From NCBI GenBank assembly GCA_013815465.1, contig JACDGE010000007.1:3001-67000 (forward strand): a stretch of 64,000 bases of DNA, written 5' to 3'. The translations under genes and the position numbers were made by a program. Origin of the DNA: Alphaproteobacteria bacterium (GTDB taxonomy: Bacteria; Pseudomonadota; Alphaproteobacteria; UBA9655). How positions within the stretch are numbered: position 1 is the first letter of the stretch; every line of letters starts with the position of its first letter. Of the stretch, positions 2,995-52,422 are shown piece after piece. The notes under the pieces are model-generated. The model worked only from the letters and a program-made list of their open reading frames with translations, did no database searches and was not told where the DNA came from.

Positions 2995-3144
2995 CTCACT
3001 GAGCTCCTTTCTTTCTTCTTCTCTCTTCTTTTTACAAATTCATTCTCATAAAAGCAAGGAAGCAATGGGAGGACGCTAGAGAATTCGTTTGCAATGTTAT
3101 TAATATAGATCTATAAATTTTTTTAAATAAAATGGAGGGGCCGG

Positions 3145-4479: not shown

Positions 4480-5428
4480 ATGGTTATCAAGAAAAATACC
4501 GCTCAGTTTCAAAAGGAATTGAGAATTCCGGAGTTTTTGAAGGAATATGAGGATGAGTCCCAATGCTTTAAAGCCTTAGTGGAGATGAGGTGGCACGCAG
4601 GATTTCGGTGTCCTAGATGTGAGTCCCACTCTCCTTGCCGTCTAAAACACGACATACCCTTTTCTAGGGCAATGACTGCCACACTCAGACCCCCGTAATG
4701 GTAGCAACAATTTTCTATTCAGCAAAACTCCCTCTGACCACATGGTTCTTGGCTATCTACTTGATGAGTCAGAGTAAAAATGGTATTTCCCAATTGGAAG
4801 TTGCACGATAGGTTGGCATTTTCCCCCGCACATGAGCGGCGCTTTATCACCAGCTGGCTCAGGTCATGCTGGAGCGCGATATGGATAAGCCATTGTCTCA
4901 TAAGATAGAACTGCACGATGTCTACTAGGGAGGCAAGAAAAAAGGCAAGCGAGGTCGGGGTTCAGAAAATACCCCCCCCTTTAATGCGGTTATTAAGAAT
5001 GATGAGTCAAATCATTCCCAGCCAATCAAGCTACACGCGGTGTACATCTTTAAAAAAAGAGTTTAAAATGGGCGGTCAAGCATTTGCAGACAGGGCTAGT
5101 GCTGACTGCTGATGGTCTCGCCTGTTTTAAGGACATTAAAGATGCAGGGTATGGGCATGAAGTTACTGTTGTAGGAAATGGCCGTGATCCTCAGAAAACC
5201 GCACCATTTAATTGGGTGAATACAGTTCTTGGAAATCCGAAAACTGCCTTGGCGGGGACGTTTCATAAGCTTTCAAAGCCCCTTCTGCCTCGCCATTTGG
5301 CTACTTTTCAATACCGTTTTAATCGACAATTTATACTCGAAGACATGGTTCCAAGGCTGGCCTATGTCTCTTTTAGGATGCCTCCTATGCCAAAAAGGCT
5401 ACTTGTTTTGGCTGAAAATCGTTGGTAA
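4480..5428 (+). pseudogene. Decayed IS1595-family (ISXO2-like) transposase gene
   Basis: The N-terminal zinc-ribbon part (QFQKELRIPEFLKEYEDESQCFKALVEMRWHAGFRCPRCES) and the C-terminal part (ADGLACFKDIKDAGYGHEVTV...FNWVNTVLGNPKTALAGTFHKLSKPLLPRHLATFQYRFNRQFILEDMVPRLAYV) are in different frames. The middle part (AKLPLTTWFLAIYLMSQSKNGIS) is broken by stops. Confidence 0.75.
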
Positions 5429-28495: not shown

Positions 28496-29686
28496 ATGGC
28501 AAAAGAAAAGTTTGAGCGGAAGAAGCCGCATTGTAACATTGGAACGATTGGTCATGTGGACCATGGGAAGACGACCTTAACGGCGGCGATAACAAAAGTG
28601 TTATCGTTGACGGGTGGCGCGGTGTTTACAGGTTATGACATGATTGACAAGGCGCCGGAAGAAAGAGCGCGGGGGATCACCATCTCGACAGCCCACGTTG
28701 AGTATGAAACGCCCGATCGTCACTATGCGCACGTTGATTGTCCCGGACACGCGGACTACGTGAAGAACATGATCACGGGTGCAGCTCAAATGGATGGTGC
28801 GATTCTGGTTGTGAATGCGGCCGATGGTCCGATGCCTCAGACTCGCGAACACATTTTGCTTGCGCGCCAAGTTGGTGTTCCCGCTCTTGTTGTCTTTATG
28901 AACAAAGTGGATCAGGTTGATGATCCTGAGCTGATAGAATTGGTTGAGATGGAAATTCGTGAATTGCTGACTTCTTATGGTTTTCCAGGGGATGATATTC
29001 CGATTGTGAAAGGATCCGCCTTGTGTGCCTTAGAAGGCCGTGAGGATCCCATTGGAAAAGATGCGATTATGGAGTTGATGACGGCTGTTGATACGTATAT
29101 TCCCCAGCCCGAGAGAGCGCTGGACAAACCCTTTTTGATGCCGATTGAAGACGTGTTTTCTATCTCTGGCCGTGGTACGGTTGTGACGGGGCGTGTTGAG
29201 AACGGAATTGTCAAAGTTGGAGAAGAAGTAGAAATTATTGGTTTGAAGGCGACGGTGAAGACGACAGTGACGGGCGTTGAAATGTTCCGTAAGCTGTTGG
29301 ATCAAGGTCAAGCGGGCGATAACGTTGGTGCGCTTCTTCGAGGAACCAAGAGAGAAGACGTGGAGCGTGGGCAAGTTTTGGCAAAGCCAGGAAGTATCAC
29401 GCCGCACACGAACTTCAATTGTGAAGCTTATATTTTGAAGAAAGAAGAAGGTGGTCGTCATACGCCCTTTTTTGGGAACTATCGTCCTCAGTTTTACTTC
29501 CGTACGACGGATGTGACAGGGACGGTGAAGTTACCGGATGGGGTAGAGATGGTGATGCCTGGAGACAATGTAACGATGGAAGTTGAGCTGATTGCTCCAA
29601 TTGCCATGGATGAAGGTCTTCGTTTTGCGATCCGCGAGGGTGGCCGTACAGTTGGTGCGGGCGTCGTCGCTTCCATCAAGAAGTAA
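28496..29686 (+). CDS. tuf: Elongation factor Tu (copy 1, tufB-type context)
   Basis: 396 aa. [22 protein letters not shown]. The protein is identical to the copy at 51232-52422. Confidence 0.98.
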
Positions 29687-29760: not shown

Positions 29761-29837
29761 AGGAGTGTAGCTCAACTGGCTAGAGTACCGGTCTCCAAAA
29801 CCGGGGGTTGTGGGTTCGAGTCCCACCACTCCTGCCA
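29761..29837 (+). tRNA. tRNA-Trp (CCA), CCA end encoded
   Basis: Acceptor AGGAGTG/CACTCCT, anticodon arm CCGGT-CTCCAAA-ACCGG, T arm GTGGG-TTCGAGT-CCCAC. Confidence 0.9.
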
Positions 29838-30363
29838 AGGTTTACCTTGGTTTGTCTAACGTCACTTTTCCTTCGGGGACCTGCTTAGGTCGTTAAGACG
29901 CAACAATATAGCGTAATACGTGATGCGCAACAATAAACTCTTACCCCAAATTACCAGGCCTTCCTCCCGAAAATTTCTTCAAAGTGTCCCGCTATTATCC
30001 TCCGGATATAAGCGCTCCTCGTATTAAAGTGTGATTTTAAAATTCTTAAAGAGGGATGCGATAAAAAGTAATAACCAGGAGGCAGGGGGGACGCAAGAAC
30101 TGCCTATTGCATTTTTATCCGACCCCGGTTTGAGTACGAATATGTCAGTATTGTCCGTTTCTCCTCAATGGTTTTTGGGAAGACTATTTTGCGGTTGCAT
30201 GTTTCACGTATTAGGCTTGAAAAGTGAAACACTCACTTCTTTTGTGAAATACGCGTGAAATATGGGTCCAAAAAAAGTGTTTCCTGATGGAACACTCCAC
30301 CGGCTCTCCTCCACACCATTTTTAGGGATTCCTCATGCGCCTTAGAGAAAACCGTGACGTTGC

Positions 30364-31497
30364 TTAAGAGCTTACCGCAGAATTCAAACGATAAAATCTA
30401 ATATAATTCCCATATCGGGTATCTACATAAAAAAGAGGATGTTTATAAACCGGCTCATTGCCCCACTTGGATTCAACAAAACCGAGGGAATCATAAACAC
30501 CATAATGTGCGGGCCACCCTAACTGCTTATAATAACAAACAAGGTCTCCTTTTTTGGGCTCTCTTGTTGCTGTAAAATACTCCTCAATCCTTTCGTTATT
30601 CGGGCATTCTACTCCTTGAAGATTCGGATAGTGGTCCTTGTAGTCGGAGGTCTTAAAGATTGCACCAAATGCATACATATAACACTTTCCAAAGAATTTA
30701 ATATAGTTCATACGCTGTATTTCAGCAGGATATTTAGATTCAGGATGGTCACAGTTATCTAACTCTTCTCTAATTCGCTTATTTTCTTCCGATGCATCAA
30801 ATTCTACGTATAAATCATCGCGCATCGTGAAAGTAAAAATATCTTCTTTTACTGTGTCTATGGTATATGGCTGCGGTTTAAGACGATAAAACTGGGCCAA
30901 ATCTCCATAATAATCAGGAGAGAAAAAGACATCATGTTGATAAACAAAGGGATTGTTCCATCCCCATTTAGACTCTACCCTTCCTCCAAGCTTAGCCTCT
31001 CTATAAATCCCCGTATGAGGAACATACTGTGCTTTTGGGTAGACTGCCAGGTCCCCCTCTTCTGGCCGTGTTGTGCAGTCAAAATAGTGATTGACGATAT
31101 AGCCTATTCCGTAAGCCTTCGCTTGATAGAGGATTGCATGAAAGGGAACTCCAGAACTTTGTTCTAATGGTTCCCTTAATGTCTTTAGGGTATACTCATA
31201 AGCATGGAGGGCTGACTCCTTATCTTCTAATTCTTTGAGTTCAAGGAAAAAACCCCCGCCTTCTTTGATTTCTTCTGTATAAGTCATTTTTTGCCATGAG
31301 GTTGCTCTGTTAGAGTTAGGCTTCCCGGCTATAAACGACCTTGAATAGGTTTCTACCCCATCCTTTTCATTACTTTTTTGAAGACTTGGGGTTCCCGCCA
31401 CCGGCCCTAAATTCTCAGGCTCAACGCTCATGGCCTGGCAAAAATGAGAATTAAGGAAAGAAAAACTAAAAATAAAGATAGTTAAACAATTAATCAT
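30364..31497 (-). CDS. Secreted protein with two tandem papain-like (NlpC/P60-type motif order) repeats
   Basis: 377 aa. Leader MINCLTIFIFSFSFLNSHFCQA, then MSVEPE. There is an internal duplication: ...EEGDLAVYPK..PHTGIYREAKLGGRVESKWGWNNPFVYQHDVFF..YYGDLAQFYRLK versus GKCYMYAFG...KKGDLVCYYK..AHYGVYDSLGFVESKWGNEPVYKHPLFY..RYGNYIRFYRLN. Confidence 0.5.
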   Translation of the reverse strand: MINCLTIFIFSFSFLNSHFCQAMSVEPENLGPVAGTPSLQKSNEKDGVETYSRSFIAGKPNSNRATSWQKMTYTEEIKEGGGFFLELKELEDKESALHAYEYTLKTLREPLEQSSGVPFHAILYQAKAYGIGYIVNHYFDCTTRPEEGDLAVYPKAQYVPHTGIYREAKLGGRVESKWGWNNPFVYQHDVFFSPDYYGDLAQFYRLKPQPYTIDTVKEDIFTFTMRDDLYVEFDASEENKRIREELDNCDHPESKYPAEIQRMNYIKFFGKCYMYAFGAIFKTSDYKDHYPNLQGVECPNNERIEEYFTATREPKKGDLVCYYKQLGWPAHYGVYDSLGFVESKWGNEPVYKHPLFYVDTRYGNYIRFYRLNSAVSS

Positions 31498-31887
31498 TTA
31501 TGTCGTTTTATCGTAAACAGTGTTGTGTACATAAATATTAATTAGTAATTAAAGTAAATATTTAAAGGGGCGAGCCTATTAATTGTACATTTTTAGACCT
31601 TCAGCCCCTCGCCTTCAGCCGGTCAATCGAAGTTTTTCTAATAATCTGTGGATGTTTTTTGGGTTGTGTAAAGGTTCTCTTGCGTAAAATACAGCGGCTG
31701 CTTCTCATTATTATTATTAATAATTAACCAAAAACATTGCTGGACACGCTCATTATAATTTACTTCTTTATTATATATTTGCCAGCTCACTACCCCATGA
31801 TTTTTTTGAGGTAGGAAAGAAGGGCTCGAAAAGTTTCATAAAATTCTAGATCTTTAGTTTGACAAAAAACAAAAAGAAAGAAAAACT

Positions 31888-32100
31888 ATGGATCTCGCGG
31901 CCCTTCTCGAAAGATATCAAACCCTATTACCCTGAAATTTGGCAAGAACAAAATGCTTTGTGAGCATGATTTTAGGAATGATTGCCTCAGGATCAGTCCA
32001 ACAACACAAGACCGCCCTTGGATTTACAGGAACTGCCAAACAAAAATCTGTTTGTACCCGAATCTCTAATTTCTTAAAAACATTCGACTTCATCTATTAA
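31888..32100 (+). pseudogene. IS4-family-like transposase N-terminal remnant (in-frame TGA at 31933-31935)
   Basis: MDLAALLERYQTLLP*NLARTKCFVSMILGMIASGSVQQHKTALGFTGTAKQKSVCTRISNFLKTF resembles the N-terminal W-N-x-A-R...V-x-L...A-x-x-F-x-G-x-A-K-x-x-S...R-x-x-x-F pattern of IS4-type transposases. The inverted copy reads TGG (Trp) at the stop position. Confidence 0.5.
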
Positions 32101-32152
32101 TCATGTTATACGTGGATTAAATTATGTTGTATTTAATAAATTAAATTTTACG

Positions 32153-32593
32153 ATGATGAAAAATTTCTTATTATGCATTTGCTTAAGTTTAACTATAAGC
32201 ACCGCCAAAGCGATGGAGGAGGAACATAGTCCTCTCTCACCGACCTATAGACCCGTTTTCAGACAAGGCTTTTCGATGCAAGACCTTGGACGATGCGCGC
32301 AAGTAAGCCGTCAGTGGAATGAGCATTCAGCCGATAATTTTTTTTGGGATCCAATCGCCCAAGATTATGGAAACTTTCATGGGTTTCCAACCACATTGGA
32401 TTTCAGTAGGATACCTAAGAAATGGAAAGACATGATGCACCGCACGCTAACTCATAGGATAGCTCCACACAGTCTAGTCACTCCCACCTTAACGTATAAA
32501 AGGGTAGAAAATTTTAAGAAGCGTCAAGAAATTGATCCAAAGTTCAAACCGACTGCTTTGGACATAATCTCTAATAGTAGAATTGTGTTGTAA
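32153..32593 (+). CDS. Secreted F-box-like motif protein, paralog D (short)
   Basis: 146 aa. Leader MMKNFLLCICLSLTISTAKA, then MEEEHS. It has the clearest F-box-like segment: FSMQDLGRCAQVSRQWNEHSADNFFWDPI. Confidence 0.6.
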   Translation: MMKNFLLCICLSLTISTAKAMEEEHSPLSPTYRPVFRQGFSMQDLGRCAQVSRQWNEHSADNFFWDPIAQDYGNFHGFPTTLDFSRIPKKWKDMMHRTLTHRIAPHSLVTPTLTYKRVENFKKRQEIDPKFKPTALDIISNSRIVL

Positions 32594-33005
32594 CTTACGT
32601 CCGCATTGGCATCAAAACATAAAGAGCTGATGTATCCGCCCCGTCTTTCGCAATAATGGCTTGGGTTTCATCCCCAATGAGCAGCTGTAATGAAGGGCTG
32701 GAAATTTGCTGTGTCACGTCAAGAAACATTTTATTCTTGCCAAATTCCAGGGTAATAGGGTGCGATATCTTTCGAGAAGGGCCGCGAGATCCATAGTATT
32801 TCTTTCTTTTTGTTTATTGCTAAACTAAAGATCTAAAATTTTATAAATCTTTTCAATCCCTTCTTTCCTGCCTCAAAAAATCATGGGGTAGTGAGATTTG
32901 CCAGTATAGAGACCCTCTGCTTATTATAGAGGGCATTATCGCTCGATTACATACGAATAATTTTGCGGACACTTAAAAGAGGTCAGAGTTTCCTTAGATA
33001 TTCCT

Positions 33006-33641
33006 TTACATTTTTTCTTTTGCTTTATCCTGATTATCAAGATCTATTGGTTTTGCATTTTTAGCATTTTGAAATTTTTCAATGTCTTCTTTAGGAGTAA
33101 GATCTTTGTGGGGAGGGATATCGTTATAAATGTGACTAAAAAACACTAATCCATCCACGAGCCTTGCAAAATGCTTATACGTCGTTGGGATCCCGGTAAG
33201 AGGATTATGATTGGTAACTTTTTGTGTTGTTAAAGCCCCTTCAGGATTTTTTTCAACTTCTTCTAACAGTTCTTGGTTTACAAACTTACCATCCGGATTT
33301 TGCCAAGACAATGCATTATGTCCTACTAGCCCGGGATACTTACAAGAAGCTAAAATAACTCCATCTTCTGTCATAACATTAACTCCCATAGAGCCAAATT
33401 CATAGTTCTTGCAAAAAGGATTATTAGAATCACTAAATAATTTAATAGATTCTTTAAGCCCATTTTTTTGATAAAAACAAACAGCATTATTAACAAGTTC
33501 TATGGTTTTTTGTTGTTTTATAGCACTTGAATCTGTGGATTCAGAAAAATGGTCATATTTTCCAGTTTTACAATCTGCATAAAGGTTAGATGTCAGCAAG
33601 GCTGAAATCAGCATAATAGCTTTATAATGAATTATTTTCAT
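33006..33641 (-). CDS. Secreted single-Cache (sCache_2-like) domain protein
   Basis: 211 aa with a signal peptide. The core AVCFYQKNGLKESIKLFSDSNNPF...GVNVMTEDGVILAS.KYPGLVGHNALSWQNPDGKFVNQELLEEV follows the standalone Cache domain pattern (helix, then a strand with 'G.vla...P.lvG.n......D.dG'). Confidence 0.55.
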   Translation of the reverse strand: MKIIHYKAIMLISALLTSNLYADCKTGKYDHFSESTDSSAIKQQKTIELVNNAVCFYQKNGLKESIKLFSDSNNPFCKNYEFGSMGVNVMTEDGVILASCKYPGLVGHNALSWQNPDGKFVNQELLEEVEKNPEGALTTQKVTNHNPLTGIPTTYKHFARLVDGLVFFSHIYNDIPPHKDLTPKEDIEKFQNAKNAKPIDLDNQDKAKEKM

Positions 33642-33929
33642 AATTTGTTCTCCATTTTATAATAGCCTACTCATATTTGATTAAAAATTAGTTACCTTTT
33701 TTATTGTACAAAATTTTTTGATGGAGGCGATAATGGCATGAGGCTTTGGTGGTGGCCCAGATTTCACCCATTAAGATCCTTGGCACAGGTAGTTGAACAC
33801 TCTCCGGTTCAATACATGGGACTGCAAAGATTATAAGCCCAATTTTAGTCTTCTTCACATAGATTGTATCTCTGTCTTTAATCGCGGAAAAATTGTAGAG
33901 AATGCTACTCAACAGGAACTTCTCCAGAG

Positions 33930-34254
33930 CTAGCATTTACACACCTTTCCGGAATATCCGGGTGGGAGGCCCCTTGTCGGAGAGGAAGGATGAGCAATTT
34001 TGAGGCTCTTGAGGATCGTTCTTCCACAAGTCTTATCTCTTTTCTGAGACGAAATTATACACTCTTGTCCCAAAACACACATCCGGTCAAAGTACCCCCG
34101 ATGAATTTTGGAGATTCGTAAACTCCACCTAACCCCTTGAAACTTTGGTGCCGGAGAAGTGAGTCGAACTCGAGGTAATAAACGTACCTGTAAGGGCTTT
34201 TCTTTTTGCCGCTGGCTTATGCCCCTCTTCTTGCGTGATGACAAAAGCTGACAT
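33930..34254 (-). pseudogene. Possible remnant of a P4-type (DUF4102-type N-terminus) integrase gene, frameshifted
   Basis: Minus-strand fragments ..GHKPAAKRKAL..SGTKVSRG and ..VLGQECIISSQKRDKTCGRTILKSLKIAHPS loosely follow the integrase N-terminal pattern AKP..K.YKL...G.K.WR.KYR...LG.YP..SL..AR..R.....L..GIDPS. The similarity is weak. Confidence 0.25.
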
Positions 34255-34446
34255 AAAACATATTAAAAGCACATATCTTTCTAGACTAAAGAGCCTGAGC
34301 CATGGGACGCTCCTCGGATATTTGGCGACAAAAAACAGTAACAAATCTGTACAAACAACAACAAAGAATCAGAGGCAAGCAATTGATTTGATTGACATCA
34401 TTTGTTAACGTTTGTTGTCAGTTAAACACTTTAACTGTCGTCAAAG

Positions 34447-34482
34447 GGAGGGGCGCGGGTTCGAGCCCTGCCCCTCCTGCCA
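34447..34482 (+). other. Orphan tRNA-Trp-like 3' fragment (T arm, acceptor 3' strand and CCA); candidate att remnant
   Basis: GGAGGGGCGCGGGTTCGAGCCCTGCCCCTCCTGCCA parallels the 3' part of tRNA-Trp (GGGGGTTGTGGGTTCGAGTCCCACCACTCCTGCCA). No matching 5' acceptor strand (AGGAGGG) lies at the required distance upstream. Confidence 0.6.
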
Positions 34483-34545
34483 AAAACATTTGTAATTTAG
34501 ATTAAACCCTGCTAAGAAAGGGTGGAGTTAACCCGGAAAAGGACT

Positions 34546-38042: not shown

Positions 38043-41000
38043 ATGGCGAGAACTTATACGGAGCGCAAAAAGATTCGGAAAAGCTTTGCACGGATACCTG
38101 AAATAGCTCCTTTGCCCAATCTGATCGAGCTACAAACCACATCCTATAGTAATTTCCTGCAAATGGATGTGCCGGCAGAAAATAGAGTTTCAATGGGTTT
38201 GCAAGAAGTTTTCAAATCTGTTTTTCCAATTAGTGATTTTTCTGGAAAGTCTCAACTTGAGTTCTATCGGTATGACTTCGATGGACCGAAATATGATGTA
38301 GACGAATGTAAACAAAGGGGTGTGACCTTTTCAGCACCTTTAAGAGTGACCTTTCGATTAATTGTATGGGACATTGATGAAGAAACGGGCGCGAAATCCG
38401 TGCATGATATCAAAGAACAAGAAGTTTACATGGGTGATATTCCCCTCATGACTGAAAATGGAACCTTTGTTGTCAATGGAATTGAGCGTGTTGTGGTGTC
38501 TCAAATGCATCGTTCGCCTGGGGTCTTTTTTGACCATGACAGTGGAAAATCCCATTCGTCGGGGAAGTATCTTTTTTCAGCGCGCGTAATTCCTTATCGG
38601 GGATCTTGGTTAGATTTTGAGTTCGACGCAAAAGATATCGTTTTTGCGCGTATAGATCGAAAAAGAAAGCTTCTCATCTCTACCTTTCTCATGGCTATGG
38701 ATAGCGCTGAGACAGAAGAAAAGCGCAAAATTGCTGCCGAAAAGGGAGAAAAGCTCGACCCTATTGACGCTCAAGGCATGTCTCGTGAAGAAATTTTGAA
38801 TGTCTTTTATGGCACGGTTGAATACCAAAAATGTGGAGAACATTGGAAAACAGCTTTCAGGCCGGAATTGGTTAAACCTGGGAAGCTGGCCCATGATTTA
38901 ATTGATGCGGCTACGGGGAAAGTCGTGGCAGCCGAAGGTGCTAAGGTCAATATGCGTTTTGCGCGTAAACTTCAGACAGAAGGTCTTAATGAAATTCTTG
39001 TTTATGAAAATGATGTGCTCGGTTGTTATGTTGCAAGTGATTTAATTAATGAAAGCACCGGTGAAGTTTATGCTGAAGCAGGTGATGAAATAACGCCTGC
39101 GTTTCTAGAAGTCATTGCAAAGGCGGACGTGCAAAGTATTCCTACTTTGGACATCGACCACGTTAACGTGGGAGCTTATTTGCGAAATACTTTAATGGCA
39201 GATAAAAATTTGACGCGTGAAGATGCACTTGTCGATATCTATAGAATCTTACGTCCCGGGGAGCCTCCAACGATCGAGGGAGCCGAAGCTCTATTTCACG
39301 GACTTTTCTTTGACACAGAGCGCTATGACTTGTCATCTGTTGGTCGCGTGAAAATGAACTCACGCCTTGGATTAGACGTGCCCGATACGATGCGTGTTCT
39401 TAACAAGCAAGATGTTCTCGCTATTATTAAAGTGCTGCTTAATTTGAAAGATGGCAGAGGCGTAATTGATGATATTGATAACCTAGGCAATAGACGTGTG
39501 CGTTCTGTAGGCGAACTTTTAGAAAACCAATACCGTGTTGGTCTTTCCCGTATGGAACGGGCAATACGAGAAAGAATGAGCTCTGTTGAAATCGAGATGG
39601 TTATGCCTCACGATTTGATAAATGCGAAGCCTGCTGCGGCAGTTGTGAGAGAGTTCTTCGGTACGTCTCAGTTGTCTCAGTTTATGGATCAAACCAATCC
39701 TCTTTCAGAGATCAATCATAAACGTCGTTTGTCGGCTTTAGGCCCAGGCGGTTTGACACGTGATCGTGCAACCTTTGAAGTCCGAGATGTGCATCCCACC
39801 CATTATGGGCGTATTTGTCCTATTGAAACCCCGGAAGGTCCAAACATTGGGCTTATCAACTCTTTGGCAACCTATGCCCGCGTGAATAAGTACGGATTCA
39901 TCGAAACTCCCTATCGTAAAGTTATTGATGGAAAAGTAACAAGCGAAATTACCTATCTTACGGCTATGGATGAAAGCAAACATACGATTGCCCAGGCAAA
40001 TGCTGAATTAGATAAGAATAATCAGTTTACGGCAGACTTTGTTAACTGTCGACAAAATGGCGACTTTGTCGTGGCGCCTGCAGCTGAAATCGATCTCATG
40101 GATGTTTCTCCAAAGCAAATTGTATCCGTTGCAGCTTCATTGATTCCCTTTATCGAAAATGATGATGCAAACCGTGCTTTGATGGGGTCCAACATGCAAC
40201 GCCAAGCCGTCCCTCTATTGCGTTCGGAAGCGCCGTTCGTTGGAACGGGAATGGAAGGGCCTGTGGCTCGTGACTCAGGCGTTGCCATTATTGCAAAGAG
40301 AACAGGCATTGTAGATCAAGTTGATGCCTCTCGTATTGTGATTCGCGTTACGGACGTGAGTGCAATGACCACAAGCAATGTCGATATCTATAATCTCTTG
40401 AAGTTTCAACGATCTAATGACAAAACCTGCGTCAACCAGAAGCCTCTTGTAAAAGTTGGGGATAAAATTGAAAAGGGTGATATCATTGCCGATGGGCCTT
40501 GTATGAATATGGGGGAACTTGCTCTTGGTTCCAATGCGCTTGTCGCATTCGTTTCTTGGAATGGGTACAATTTTGAAGACTCTATTATTATTTCAGAACG
40601 CATTGTTAAAAATGATATTTTTACGTCAATCCACATTGAAGAATTTGAACTTTCAGCACGAGATACCAAGCTAGGTAATGAGGAAATTACGCGCGATATC
40701 CCGAATGTCGGTGACGAAGCCTTGCGTCATTTGGATGAGGCAGGGATCGTTTATATCGGTGCCGATGTGAAGCCTGGAGATATCCTCGTTGGTAAAGTTA
40801 CGCCCAAAGGGGAAGCTCCTTCTACGCCCGAAGAAAAGCTCTTGCGGGCCATTTTTGGAGAGAAAGCATCAGATGTGCGAGACACGTCTTTAAGGCTTCC
40901 TCCTGGAGTCCAAGGAACGATTGTTGAAGTTCGTGTTTTCTCTCGCCGAGGCGTGGAAAAGGATGAGCGTTCTTTAGCCATTGAACGCGCAGAAATCGAA

Positions 41001-42215
41001 AGACTTGCGAAAGATCGTGATGCAGAAAGGTCAATTTTAGATAGAAACTTTTATGCATCTCTAGAGGAATTGCTGCTCAAGCAAAAAATTGTGAGTGCCC
41101 CCGCAGGTGTAAAGAAGGGAACAACGGTTACAAAGAGCGTGCTTGATTCTTTGTCTAAAGGCCAGTGGCGTCAAATTGTTGTGGAAGACGATGCTATAAT
41201 GTCAGCTCTAGAGTCGGCAAAGCAGAATCATGATAATCGAACGACTGTTCTTCAGACCCGTTTTGAAGATAAGGTTGATAAGTTAAGACGTGGTGATGAG
41301 CTGCCCACAGGTGTTTTAAAGCAAGTCAAAGTTTTTGTTGCGGTGAAACGCAAACTTCAACCAGGAGATAAAATGGCAGGACGCCATGGGAACAAGGGAG
41401 TCGTTTCTCGTATTGTTCCTATAGAAGATATGCCTCATCTGGAAGACGGAACACCCGTAGATATCGTTTTGAATCCTTTGGGCCTCCCTTCCCGTATGAA
41501 TGTGGGTCAAATCCTTGAAACCCACTTAGGTTGGGCTGCAGCAGGATTGGGGCGCCAAATTAATGATGCGCTTGCCAAAATGGCTCTCGAAGAGCACAAA
41601 GATACGACCCATTTACGGACCGCTCTTGATTACGTCTATGAAGATGATCAGATCATAAAAGATATTAAGGGCTTATCTGATGATGAGGTTGTCGAACTTG
41701 CAACGAACTTGACGGGTGCCATTCCCATGGCAACTTCGGTCTTTGATGGAGCTCATGAGGCTGATATCAATCACCAGCTTAAAAAAGCCAACCTTGATAC
41801 CAGTGGACAAGTGACATTGATTGATGGGAGGTCCGGCGAGCCGTTTGATCGGAAGGTAACTGTGGGATATATGTATATGCTTAAACTTCACCACTTGGTG
41901 GATGATAAGATTCATGCTCGATCCGTTGGACCCTACAGTCTTGTTACCCAGCAGCCCCTGGGAGGAAAGGCTCAGTTTGGTGGACAACGGTTTGGAGAAA
42001 TGGAAGTATGGGCTCTCGAAGCTTATGGAGCCTCCTATACTCTCCAAGAAATGTTGACAGTTAAATCGGATGACGTTTCCGGACGAACAAAGGTTTATGA
42101 ATCGATTGTGCGTGGAGATGATAACTTTGAGTCTGGTATCCCTGAATCTTTTAACGTTTTGATTAAGGAATTGCGTTCCTTAGGATTGAACGTGGAATTG
42201 GGTGTAAATGAATAG
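38043..42215 (+). CDS. rpoB: DNA-directed RNA polymerase subunit beta
   Basis: 1390 aa with conserved blocks throughout, for example [18 protein letters not shown] and [10 protein letters not shown]. Confidence 0.99.
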
Positions 42216-42259: not shown

Positions 42260-43213
42260 GTGGATATTAACGTGAGTGATATAACTCTTAAATATTATTT
42301 AGTTGCTTCAGCGATGGCTTTTGCAAGTATTAATCCAGCGTTAAGAGCAATGATTCAAGATGAACTAGAGGTTGATAAAAAAACTATCGTGAGTGAAAAT
42401 TTCAGAGACCGTAACGGTAAGAAATCTGGAGTTTTGATCTTACATTGCGTAGGGCTTGATGATGCTTGGGTTTCTAAAAATTATGGTTTAAACAATACCA
42501 ACGGGGGGCTCGGGGTAAGTGCACACTACTATGTCTCTCAAGAAAGCAAAAAAGTCTACCAGCTCGTGTCTGAAGAATTGAGTGCTTTTCATGCGGGTCC
42601 AAGTGAATGGCGTTCTTTGGCAAAGGAAAATAACCTTCAAGGATTAAATGATATATCTATAGGCATTGAGTTTCAATCTCCCGGATATGCCCAAATTAAG
42701 AGGGAAGCATATTATCCTTATAGCTTCGCGTCCTATAGTGAAGAACAAATAAACTCTGGCATCCTATTGAGCAAACAAATAATCAAAAAACACAATATTA
42801 CTCCAGAAAATGTTGTCTGGCATTCAGATGTGTCCCCTTTGCGTAAAACTGATCCGGGAGCTTTATTTGATGGGAGAAGATTTGCGCAAAATGGTATAGG
42901 TGTTTGGCCTTCTGCAGATCGTCTAGAAGATAATCAATTAGAAACATCGTTATCTACTATTCAAGCGGGTTTAAAGAGTTGGGGTTATCCTCATGTTGAA
43001 ACAACGGATGTTTTTGATAATGCAACTAAGTATGTTTTAACAGCCCATTATATGCATTATTTACCTCAAGAAGTGCAGTGGGAAGACTTCAAAAATCAAG
43101 CGTCAGGCTCGATTTTTGATACTGTACAAGAGTGGAGTGATTTCCCCTACCAAAAGGATGTTCTTGCTATTTCTTTGGAAAATTTGAATAGGAAAAATTT
43201 TGAAAAATTTTAA
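42260..43213 (+). CDS. Periplasmic N-acetylmuramoyl-L-alanine amidase (amidase_2, AmpD/AmiD/PGRP fold) with a PG-binding-like C-terminal region
   Basis: Hydrophobic leader (YYLVASAMAFASINPA). LILHCVG (Zn His), SAHYYV, SAFHAGPSEW, LNDISIGIEFQ, VVWHSDVSPLRKTDPG (Zn His/Asp). C-terminal IQAGLKSWGYP...DNATKYVLTAHYMHYLP. There is no ATG near the start; candidates are GTG 42260 or, better spaced from AAAGGTGG, GTG 42272. Confidence 0.8.
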   Translation: MDINVSDITLKYYLVASAMAFASINPALRAMIQDELEVDKKTIVSENFRDRNGKKSGVLILHCVGLDDAWVSKNYGLNNTNGGLGVSAHYYVSQESKKVYQLVSEELSAFHAGPSEWRSLAKENNLQGLNDISIGIEFQSPGYAQIKREAYYPYSFASYSEEQINSGILLSKQIIKKHNITPENVVWHSDVSPLRKTDPGALFDGRRFAQNGIGVWPSADRLEDNQLETSLSTIQAGLKSWGYPHVETTDVFDNATKYVLTAHYMHYLPQEVQWEDFKNQASGSIFDTVQEWSDFPYQKDVLAISLENLNRKNFEKF

Positions 43214-43252: not shown

Positions 43253-47446
<4,194 letters not shown>

Positions 47447-51231: not shown

Positions 51232-52422
51232 ATGGCAAAAGAAAAGTTTGAGCGGAAGAAGCCGCATTGTAACATTGGAACGATTGGTCATGTGGACCAT
51301 GGGAAGACGACCTTAACGGCGGCGATAACAAAAGTGTTATCGTTGACGGGTGGCGCGGTGTTTACAGGTTATGACATGATTGACAAGGCGCCGGAAGAAA
51401 GAGCGCGGGGGATCACCATCTCGACAGCCCACGTTGAGTATGAAACGCCCGATCGTCACTATGCGCACGTTGATTGTCCCGGACACGCGGACTACGTGAA
51501 GAACATGATCACGGGTGCAGCTCAAATGGATGGTGCGATTCTGGTTGTGAATGCGGCCGATGGTCCGATGCCTCAGACTCGCGAACACATTTTGCTTGCG
51601 CGCCAAGTTGGTGTTCCCGCTCTTGTTGTCTTTATGAACAAAGTGGATCAGGTTGATGATCCTGAGCTGATAGAATTGGTTGAGATGGAAATTCGTGAAT
51701 TGCTGACTTCTTATGGTTTTCCAGGGGATGATATTCCGATTGTGAAAGGATCCGCCTTGTGTGCCTTAGAAGGCCGTGAGGATCCCATTGGAAAAGATGC
51801 GATTATGGAGTTGATGACGGCTGTTGATACGTATATTCCCCAGCCCGAGAGAGCGCTGGACAAACCCTTTTTGATGCCGATTGAAGACGTGTTTTCTATC
51901 TCTGGCCGTGGTACGGTTGTGACGGGGCGTGTTGAGAACGGAATTGTCAAAGTTGGAGAAGAAGTAGAAATTATTGGTTTGAAGGCGACGGTGAAGACGA
52001 CAGTGACGGGCGTTGAAATGTTCCGTAAGCTGTTGGATCAAGGTCAAGCGGGCGATAACGTTGGTGCGCTTCTTCGAGGAACCAAGAGAGAAGACGTGGA
52101 GCGTGGGCAAGTTTTGGCAAAGCCAGGAAGTATCACGCCGCACACGAACTTCAATTGTGAAGCTTATATTTTGAAGAAAGAAGAAGGTGGTCGTCATACG
52201 CCCTTTTTTGGGAACTATCGTCCTCAGTTTTACTTCCGTACGACGGATGTGACAGGGACGGTGAAGTTACCGGATGGGGTAGAGATGGTGATGCCTGGAG
52301 ACAATGTAACGATGGAAGTTGAGCTGATTGCTCCAATTGCCATGGATGAAGGTCTTCGTTTTGCGATCCGCGAGGGTGGCCGTACAGTTGGTGCGGGCGT
52401 CGTCGCTTCCATCAAGAAGTAG
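51232..52422 (+). CDS. tuf: Elongation factor Tu (copy 2, str-operon context)
   Basis: The 396-aa translation is identical to copy 1, and the overlapping spurious ORFs also translate identically, which implies nucleotide identity. The stop codon differs (TAG here, TAA in copy 1). Confidence 0.98.

Follow-up and report, generated by a model that had tools for sequence, protein, structure and literature searches.

How did a small F-box-like gene come to lie between two inverted arms of an insertion sequence (IS), with a perfect 9-bp direct repeat abutting both outer ends? The question is raised by a locus in the genome of Alphaproteobacteria bacterium (GTDB lineage UBA9655; GenBank assembly GCA_013815465.1, contig JACDGE010000007.1), of which a 64,000-nucleotide stretch (positions 3,001 to 67,000 of the forward strand; hereafter the window, to which all coordinates without a locus name refer) was analyzed. 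The element in question occupies 31786-32895 (1,110 bp). We consider it probable, if short of certain, that this element is a compound transposon, of the Tn5/Tn10 type, that has degenerated or, equivalently, a non-autonomous derivative resembling a mobile insertion cassette (MIC).

The two arms (31786-31959 and 32724-32895) are inverted copies of each other that align by BLAST over 174 nt with 90.8% identity, 14 mismatches and 2 gap openings, in line with the ~170-nt arms described in the initial annotation of this DNA; comparison by MAFFT gave 15 substitutions in 172 columns plus one insertion or deletion in a T run. They contain a 34-nt perfect block, and their outermost 21 nt are identical between the arms and absent elsewhere in the window. 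The direct repeat ATTTGCCAG, which the initial annotation had likewise placed against both ends, was read directly at 31777-31785 (left copy) and 32896-32904 (right copy), immediately outside the arms. It occurs just these two times in the window, and two 9-mers at fixed positions would agree at 9/9 nucleotides by chance, given the base composition, with a probability of ~7e-6. The start of the same inward-pointing open reading frame (ORF; MDLAALLERY...) is present in each arm: the left copy begins with an ATG at 31888, has TGA at codon 16 (31933-31935) in place of the Trp codon of the intact transposase, and continues in frame to 32100 (71 codons), and the right copy, with its ATG at 32794-32792 on the minus strand, keeps ~24 transposase codons. 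Both the shared ORF start and the left-arm stop had been noted in the initial annotation, as had the lack of an intact transposase in the element interior, which was confirmed here. A promoter and terminator scan of the element found nothing beyond shuffled expectation.

The parent IS was traced from the peptide encoded in the arms, which led to short protein fragments (54-121 aa) and, through a profile of these fragments, to full-length proteins of ~360 aa that reach the cutoffs of both NCBIfam NF033591 ('IS4 family transposase') and Pfam DDE_Tnp_1. A scan of metagenome contigs for a 20-nt IS terminus yielded eight loci. Identical 1,200-bp copies with different flanks, referred to here as the master IS, were found at L023:2670-3869 and L024:124-1323 (loci compared with the window carry L numbers). 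The 23-bp terminal inverted repeats (TIRs) of the master IS (22/23 matching; left repeat, IRL, CACACTACCCCATGATTTTTTGA; right repeat, IRR, CTCACTACCCCATGATTTTTTGA) read C(A/T)CACTACCCCATGATTTTTTGA. Its ORF is intact and encodes 364 residues beginning MDLAALLERYQTLLPWNLARTKCFVSMILGMIASGSVQQHKTALGFTGTAKQKSVC; the first 56 of these differ from the window remnant solely at codon 16, which is a stop in the remnant. The master transposase scores 180.9 bits against NF033591 (cutoff 152), carries the YREK signature Y-(2)-R-(3)-E-(6)-K at residues 249-263 (YKRRWTIELLFANCK; Y249-K263), and has acidic residues D92, D158 and E256. The defining features of the IS4 family are a DDE transposase that has this signature and is read from one unframeshifted ORF (PMC2266710), besides TIRs and a target duplication of roughly 8-13 bp; the parent IS has all of these. 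Its size of 1,200 bp, CT/CA ends and 9-bp repeat agree with the entries for IS10 and IS4Sa in the IS4-family table, in which the IS10 subgroup is given with 1200-1350 bp, CT ends and a 9-bp direct repeat (PMC2266710). The IS4-type 5' ends that the initial annotation had recognized in the arms are those of this element; the intact IS4-like master copy that it had proposed to look for was found in metagenome contigs, and the contrary outcome that it had considered, no related IS anywhere, does not apply. The closest full-length relative in the protein databases (P0016; DDE_Tnp_1, 54 bits) shares ~68% identity with the master transposase in a tblastn comparison. The nearest plasmid-borne IS4 transposases in PLSDB (Neochlamydia, Legionella and cyanobacteria) are <40% identical, so the parent IS is without a close named relative in that database, and a PDB sequence search with the transposase returned no significant match.

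Native insertions of the parent IS were used to read the 9-bp repeat. The master IS in L023 is bordered by the 9-bp duplication ATTGTAGAA. In the GTDB metagenome-assembled genome (MAG) JBEPVR01, ten contig ends terminate inside the parent IS, and all four IRL-type ends (4/4) pair with IRR-type ends via identical 9-mers (AAAATTCTA, ATCTTGATC, CCGTAACGC and ACACTATAT). In all, a perfect 9-bp duplication accompanies five independent native insertions (one in L023 and four reconstructed from the paired JBEPVR01 contig ends), and the repeat around the window element is the footprint of transposition that it had been taken for; the element was inserted as a unit by the IS transposase. The parent IS was active in this Holosporales-like alphaproteobacterial lineage. 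One other copy was recovered from the window genome (L041:9822 to ~11302). It matches the master IS at 89% identity, its right end is degenerate, and a 299-bp element resembling a miniature inverted-repeat transposable element (MITE) lies inserted in it; no intact transposase was found in that genome. The interrupting element (L041:10353-10651; GCA_020064125.1, JAITZQ012110098.1) has 26-bp perfect terminal inverted repeats (AATGCCTATCCGAACAGTGCCTGTGA), an 8-bp duplication (CAGATTTT) and, judged by eye, an apparent remnant of an IS1595-type zinc-ribbon N terminus. In L003 (L003:153-2690; JGI 3300034800, Ga0377323_133), an 835-aa ORF with no Pfam match lies between two IS copies and exactly fills the gap from the right IS end at 180 to the left IS end at 2664, with its stop inside the first IS terminus.

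Alignment of the arms to the parent IS established what each of them is. The left arm (31786-32090, + strand; IRL terminus 31786-31809) corresponds to IS positions 1-304, with 93.7% identity to the master IS over positions 3-304 and 89.6% to L003; the right arm (32724-32895, - strand; IRL-type terminus 32873-32895) corresponds to IS positions 1-172 in inverted orientation, with 94.1% identity to the master IS over positions 3-172. The element retains 305 and 172 bp of the IS together with 645 bp of cargo, and beyond both arms there is no further match to the parent IS anywhere in the window. The native right end shares merely its terminal 23-28 nt with the arms (L003:153-180; master IS 1178-1200), so the right arm is a second left (transposase 5') end and not part of a long natural inverted repeat. 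The element is not itself an IS, having an incomplete transposase and two left-type ends. Of the 15 positions at which the arms differ by substitution, 6 are polymorphic among other IS copies too; 4 are changed in the left arm only, and 5 in the right arm only. The left arm has TTTGACAAAAAAC in common with L022 and L029, and the right arm has AGCAATAAAC, GGGATTG and AATACT in common with L003 and the master copy. The arms derive from two different IS variants, which speaks for two independent IS copies. A fold-back or inverted duplication of one IS end was ruled out by these different pre-existing polymorphisms, and an IS with naturally long (170-bp) terminal repeats by the 23-bp TIRs and the different right-end sequence of the master IS.

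The interior is a captured piece of chromosome. Window positions 32081-32725 form one 645-bp block that aligns to L004:9930-10572 with 90.4% identity and ends exactly at the IS fragments. The native gene order in L004-L007 is a major facilitator superfamily (MFS) gene (-), the homolog of the cargo gene (+), dnaN (-), dnaA (-) and rpsT. L008, from a more distant lineage, has MFS (-) followed by the homolog (+), its 376-aa neighbour being an MFS protein 75% identical to that of L004. No IS sequence is present in L004-L008. Within the block, the native upstream region of the cargo gene (32091-32152, +; 32081-32152 is 82% identical to the stretch upstream of the L004 homolog) is followed by an intact 146-aa ORF (32153-32593, +) and by a dead 3' fragment of dnaN (32595-32725, -) encoding the last 43 DnaN residues and the stop. 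This tail, which is identical to L004 at 40/43 residues and 89.3% at the DNA level, accounts for the weak Pfam DNA_pol3_beta_3 match in the element and serves to mark where the cargo came from, namely a dnaN locus. It ends ...MRT, where 20/20 listed real DnaN proteins end ...MRV (V to T). It differs from L004 by 10 synonymous versus 5 non-synonymous changes (synonymous divergence, dS, 0.42; non-synonymous divergence, dN, 0.05; p = 2e-4), and this mostly synonymous pattern indicates that the sequence diverged within a working gene and was severed relatively recently, with little decay since. Elsewhere, the slot between dnaN and MFS holds an unrelated small secreted ORF (L011-L013) or no gene (L039).

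Both inner junctions lie within the IS, at IS position 304 on the left and 172 on the right. Three-way alignments of the window, the IS (L003) and the native locus (L004) showed that at the left junction (32081-32090) the two homologies overlap by ~8-10 nt, CATT(C)GACTT, and that at the right junction (32722-32727) there is a short microhomology, AAGAA. Their IS-internal position, together with the microhomology, identifies them as joints of illegitimate recombination rather than ends made by a transposase.

For the origin of the element we infer the following order of events, including the former presence of complete IS copies around the cargo. Two different IS copies would have come to lie inverted, with their left ends outward, around a stretch of the dnaN/MFS locus that carried the small F-box-like accessory gene. 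The IS transposase, acting in cis or in trans, would then have synapsed both outer IRL termini, and the whole unit would have been inserted at ATTTGCCAG in a tRNA-Trp-linked island with duplication of 9 bp. Before or after this move, one microhomology deletion may have removed the DNA from IS position 304 to the upstream region of the gene, and a second may have removed that from dnaN codon -43 to IS position 172 of the other copy. The initial annotation had likewise described a non-autonomous unit that transposed whole with a passenger gene, a view upheld by the two IRL arms and the 9-bp target duplication. With no transposase, a nonsense codon in the left arm and a degraded second IS copy, the element is probably immobile today.

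Several observations weigh against this history. No complete composite, with full IS copies and inside ends around the cargo, was found, and the path from full IS copies is inferred. Two deletions that each end near the sole intact gene need selection or coincidence, yet constraint on that gene is weak. The left terminus has one extra T within the 23-bp inverted repeat. The window genome's own dnaN locus was not recovered (of the 10 NCBI-sourced proteins checked among 120 listed DnaN matches, none carries an MBA38... accession of this MAG; matches P0162, P0163 and P0168 belong to other lineages). No empty site, which would read as a single ATTTGCCAG between TTATTATAT and TATAGAGACC, was recovered, since the relatives reached through NusG lack the island or differ there, and the 211-aa neighbour of the element gave no close metagenome relatives for this search.

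The main rival, which we hold to be unlikely, is capture into a defective element: a pre-existing, non-autonomous element of two IRL stubs would have captured the dnaN piece, copied in by template switching or microhomology repair, and would then have been mobilised in trans, much as Pack-MULEs and Pack-MITEs of plants arise. Both junctions are IS-internal and have microhomology (~8-10 nt and ~5 nt), as template switching or microhomology-mediated end joining would give; copying of a fragment more readily explains a short cargo that cuts through an essential gene than does the decay of an IS inserted in or beyond dnaN; and IS4-family elements such as IS231 move by cut-and-paste (PMC2266710), leaving breaks in need of repair. 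Microhomology deletions, however, account for the same junctions equally well, and arms from two distinct IS variants are more simply explained by two separate IS copies. Neither an empty two-IRL backbone nor a second loaded element was found among 42 loci and in two collection scans. More generally, no second copy of the element was found in the window, the 42 loci, or the metagenome and GTDB terminus scans, which is weak evidence because short-read contigs break at IS copies.

A related proposal sees in the element a gene-capture cassette that can still be mobilised and carries an effector-like gene from one related protist symbiont to another; the cargo would have been captured from the dnaN locus of an L004-like donor, by repair between two IS stubs, and then transferred horizontally. 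We judge this improbable. If true, it would account for two observations, namely the identity of the cargo to L004 (90%, versus 77-87% between housekeeping regions of sampled relatives) and the intact state of the transposed copy as opposed to the decayed native copy in L004. Synonymous divergence from L004 is also unequal within the cargo (0.12 in the cargo ORF versus 0.42 in the dnaN tail, p = 0.013). The excess of identity and the unequal synonymous divergence may mean that the L004 organism is the closest relative or that the cargo has had a partly horizontal history; L003 and L041, compared for a wider baseline between the two organisms, have just the IS in common.

It is very improbable that no unit transposition took place at all, i.e. 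that two independent IS insertions beside resident DNA, or a local rearrangement, produced the structure next to a 9-bp repeat that arose by coincidence or was there beforehand. In favour of this are the IS debris that relatives carry in this insertion hotspot and the failure to recover an empty site in the relatives examined. Independent insertions would, however, each bring their own duplication; a matching 9-mer abutting both termini is expected at the low frequency given above and has the length of the parent-IS duplication; and the interior is not resident, being a dnaN-locus fragment far from any dnaN.

The initial annotation had offered as an alternative that the long arms make the segment invertible, and there is very little to recommend a switch in which the ~172-bp arms let the interior (31960-32723) invert around the cargo gene. 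Repeats of ~170 nt at 91% identity with a 34-nt perfect block could permit occasional homologous inversion, but scans of neighbouring ORFs found no invertase or recombinase domain, the upstream region of the cargo gene lies inside the invertible part so that a change in expression is not obvious, both full assemblies share one orientation, and the arms are fully accounted for as IS remnants. Hardly credible is an assembly chimera of IS repeat, dnaN-locus fragment and island, as the short-read MAG source and the contig breaks at IS copies in related MAGs might suggest, because the element has the same structure and orientation in two NCBI assemblies (the MAG contig and GCA_020064125.1), both inner junctions are spanned by one contig of an independent Logan assembly, the arms differ by 9% and hence are distinguishable, and a mis-join would not yield a perfect 9-bp duplication of the correct length.

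Returning to the degenerate compound transposon, we compared it with known systems. Tn10 is built like Tn5. In Tn5, a pair of inverted IS50 copies offers its outside ends to the transposase as substrates (PMC7664229), and the window element resembles both transposons (IS50 and IS10) in having two inverted IS4-family units with transposase 5' ends outermost, cargo between them and a 9-bp duplication (PMC7664229; PMC2266710). It comprises two distinct IS units within one target duplication around the whole, but it has no complete flanking IS: both are truncated (positions 304 and 172), which makes it at best a relic. In contrast to Tn5 and Tn10, the IS parts are stubs of 305 and 172 bp without inside ends or transposase, no resistance determinant is carried but a 645-bp chromosomal scrap, the host is an uncultured alphaproteobacterium resembling protist symbionts, and the parent IS is <40% identical to any PLSDB plasmid-borne IS4 transposase.

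The MIC description applies as well, in that IS-type TIRs surround a passenger gene in a transposase-less element with the cognate target duplication. MIC231 has both left and right IS231 ends, and it occurs in families with modular cassettes. Here, by contrast, there are two left ends from two IS variants, ~170-300 bp of transposase 5' sequence, and one known copy. The likeness to MICs such as MIC231 from IS231 lies in a non-autonomous make-up, IS-type TIRs around a passenger coding sequence that has nothing to do with transposition, and the cognate duplication; in principle, the element might also be mobilised in trans (PMC3129680 for the concept); references for MIC231 are given in PMC2266710. 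With bacterial MITEs the element shares derivation from an IS, the lack of a transposase, terminal inverted repeats and a target duplication. MITEs, however, are short (up to a few hundred bp), non-coding and multi-copy, with one left and one right end, and the element is no MITE, being 1,110 bp long with an intact 146-aa ORF and a gene fragment, two left ends and a single copy in the data searched. Pack-MULEs and Pack-MITEs likewise hold host gene fragments between transposon termini, joined at microhomologies, but these are eukaryotic and comprise many elements, whereas the window offers a single case for which a pair of simple deletions is an equally good explanation.

The cargo gene itself (32153-32593) encodes a protein with a hydrophobic, signal-peptide-like N terminus and a partial F-box-like domain. 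It matches Pfam F-box-like PF12937 at 29.6 bits (cutoff 24.3) over profile positions 17-41 of 47 (residues ~38-75). The match recurs in the homolog P0013, and across the two proteins it is above the cutoff over profile positions 17-43 of 47. A three-sequence profile matches solved F-box domains at E = 1e-3 to 5e-3, and the AlphaFold model of the protein has a mean pLDDT (predicted local distance difference test) of 37.6, too low for the model to be of use. Among 5.8e9 proteins the ORF has two relatives (P0013 is one named homolog), and a GTDB genome scan found no relative of the gene. The dN/dS of the ORF is 0.64 (p = 0.10), i.e. constraint is weak, and the ORF is unannotated in the NCBI MAG, whose locus tags start with H0X26_. 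The transposed copy is intact; in L004-L007 (L004:10001-10445) the native one is a pseudogene that carries a 1-nt deletion and an in-frame stop. The cargo gene is an unstable accessory gene, and any function or expression that it may have is a prediction from its sequence.

These results separate two parts of what had been proposed for the gene, namely that it is an F-box-like 'paralog D' and that the element is a MITE-like vehicle that spreads a secreted F-box-like family. The ORF is real and its PF12937 match is above the cutoff. The family, however, did not show up in the window: among the ORFs tested, neither a paralog of the cargo gene nor another F-box ORF was found by tblastn, by a profile run against 714 ORF segments or by Pfam scans of 10 candidate ORFs. 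The initial annotation had proposed to look for arm remnants at other F-box-like copies; both known homologs lie at the native dnaN locus without IS arms, and none were found in the window. A dedicated vehicle finds no support in an element that is single-copy in the data searched, has no paralogs found in the window and carries an arbitrary chunk of the dnaN locus with a dead dnaN tail.

The element is inserted within a lineage-specific island of 4.6 kb (29839-34479), AT-rich by its GC profile, between tRNA-Trp (29761-29837) and secE. The right border of the island is a degenerate 3' half of tRNA-Trp (~34431-34483), and an Rfam scan of the island found tRNA-Trp only. In L015-L017 (82.5% DNA identity), tRNA-Trp is just ~46 bp from the secE upstream region and the island is absent; L018 and L019 (86.6% identity) have at the island position a different 286-aa ORF, a 39-bp tRNA-Trp 3' repeat and an IS4 'DREFIG' remnant. 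As far as these comparisons reach, the tRNA-Trp/secE site is a recurrent insertion hotspot. The element is flanked by two orphan genes, 30364-31497 (-) and 33006-33641 (-), whose products have signal-peptide-like N termini and are each the sole member of their 90% cluster. The 377-aa protein has weak DUF7689, CHAP and NlpC/P60 matches, and the 211-aa protein has weak Cache-domain matches and no close relatives in metagenome contigs.

The DnaN of the L004 lineage, taken as a stand-in for that of the window lineage, is 56% identical to DnaN of Candidatus Bealeia paramacronuclearis, which suggests a Holosporales-like lineage. Elsewhere in the window, a gene for an Amidase_2 protein (PF01510, ~313 aa; 42260-43213, +) lies between rpoB (38043-42215) and rpoC (43262-47446). 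L015 and L016 have just a 61-aa ORF at this place, so the Amidase_2 gene appears to have been inserted into the rpoBC operon in this lineage specifically. An IS1595-family (ISXO2-like) transposase fragment is present at 5084-5428 (+; PF12762, 55.7 bits). The window has two tuf (EF-Tu) copies (28496-29686 and 51232-52422) that are identical over at least their last 127 bp, a duplication that is probably the reason why related contigs break just upstream of tRNA-Trp.

The locus is a clear example of a known process, and presents neither a new mechanism nor a dedicated vehicle for an effector family. What it adds to the annotation of these genomes is a previously unnamed 1.2-kb IS4-family element that can now be used with its ends and its 9-bp duplication. 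For the biology of the organism, it is a junction-by-junction record of an IS relocating or duplicating a small eukaryote-like (F-box-like) gene in an uncultured Holosporales-like bacterium, and it fits the general view that IS activity reshuffles the host-interaction genes of intracellular symbionts.

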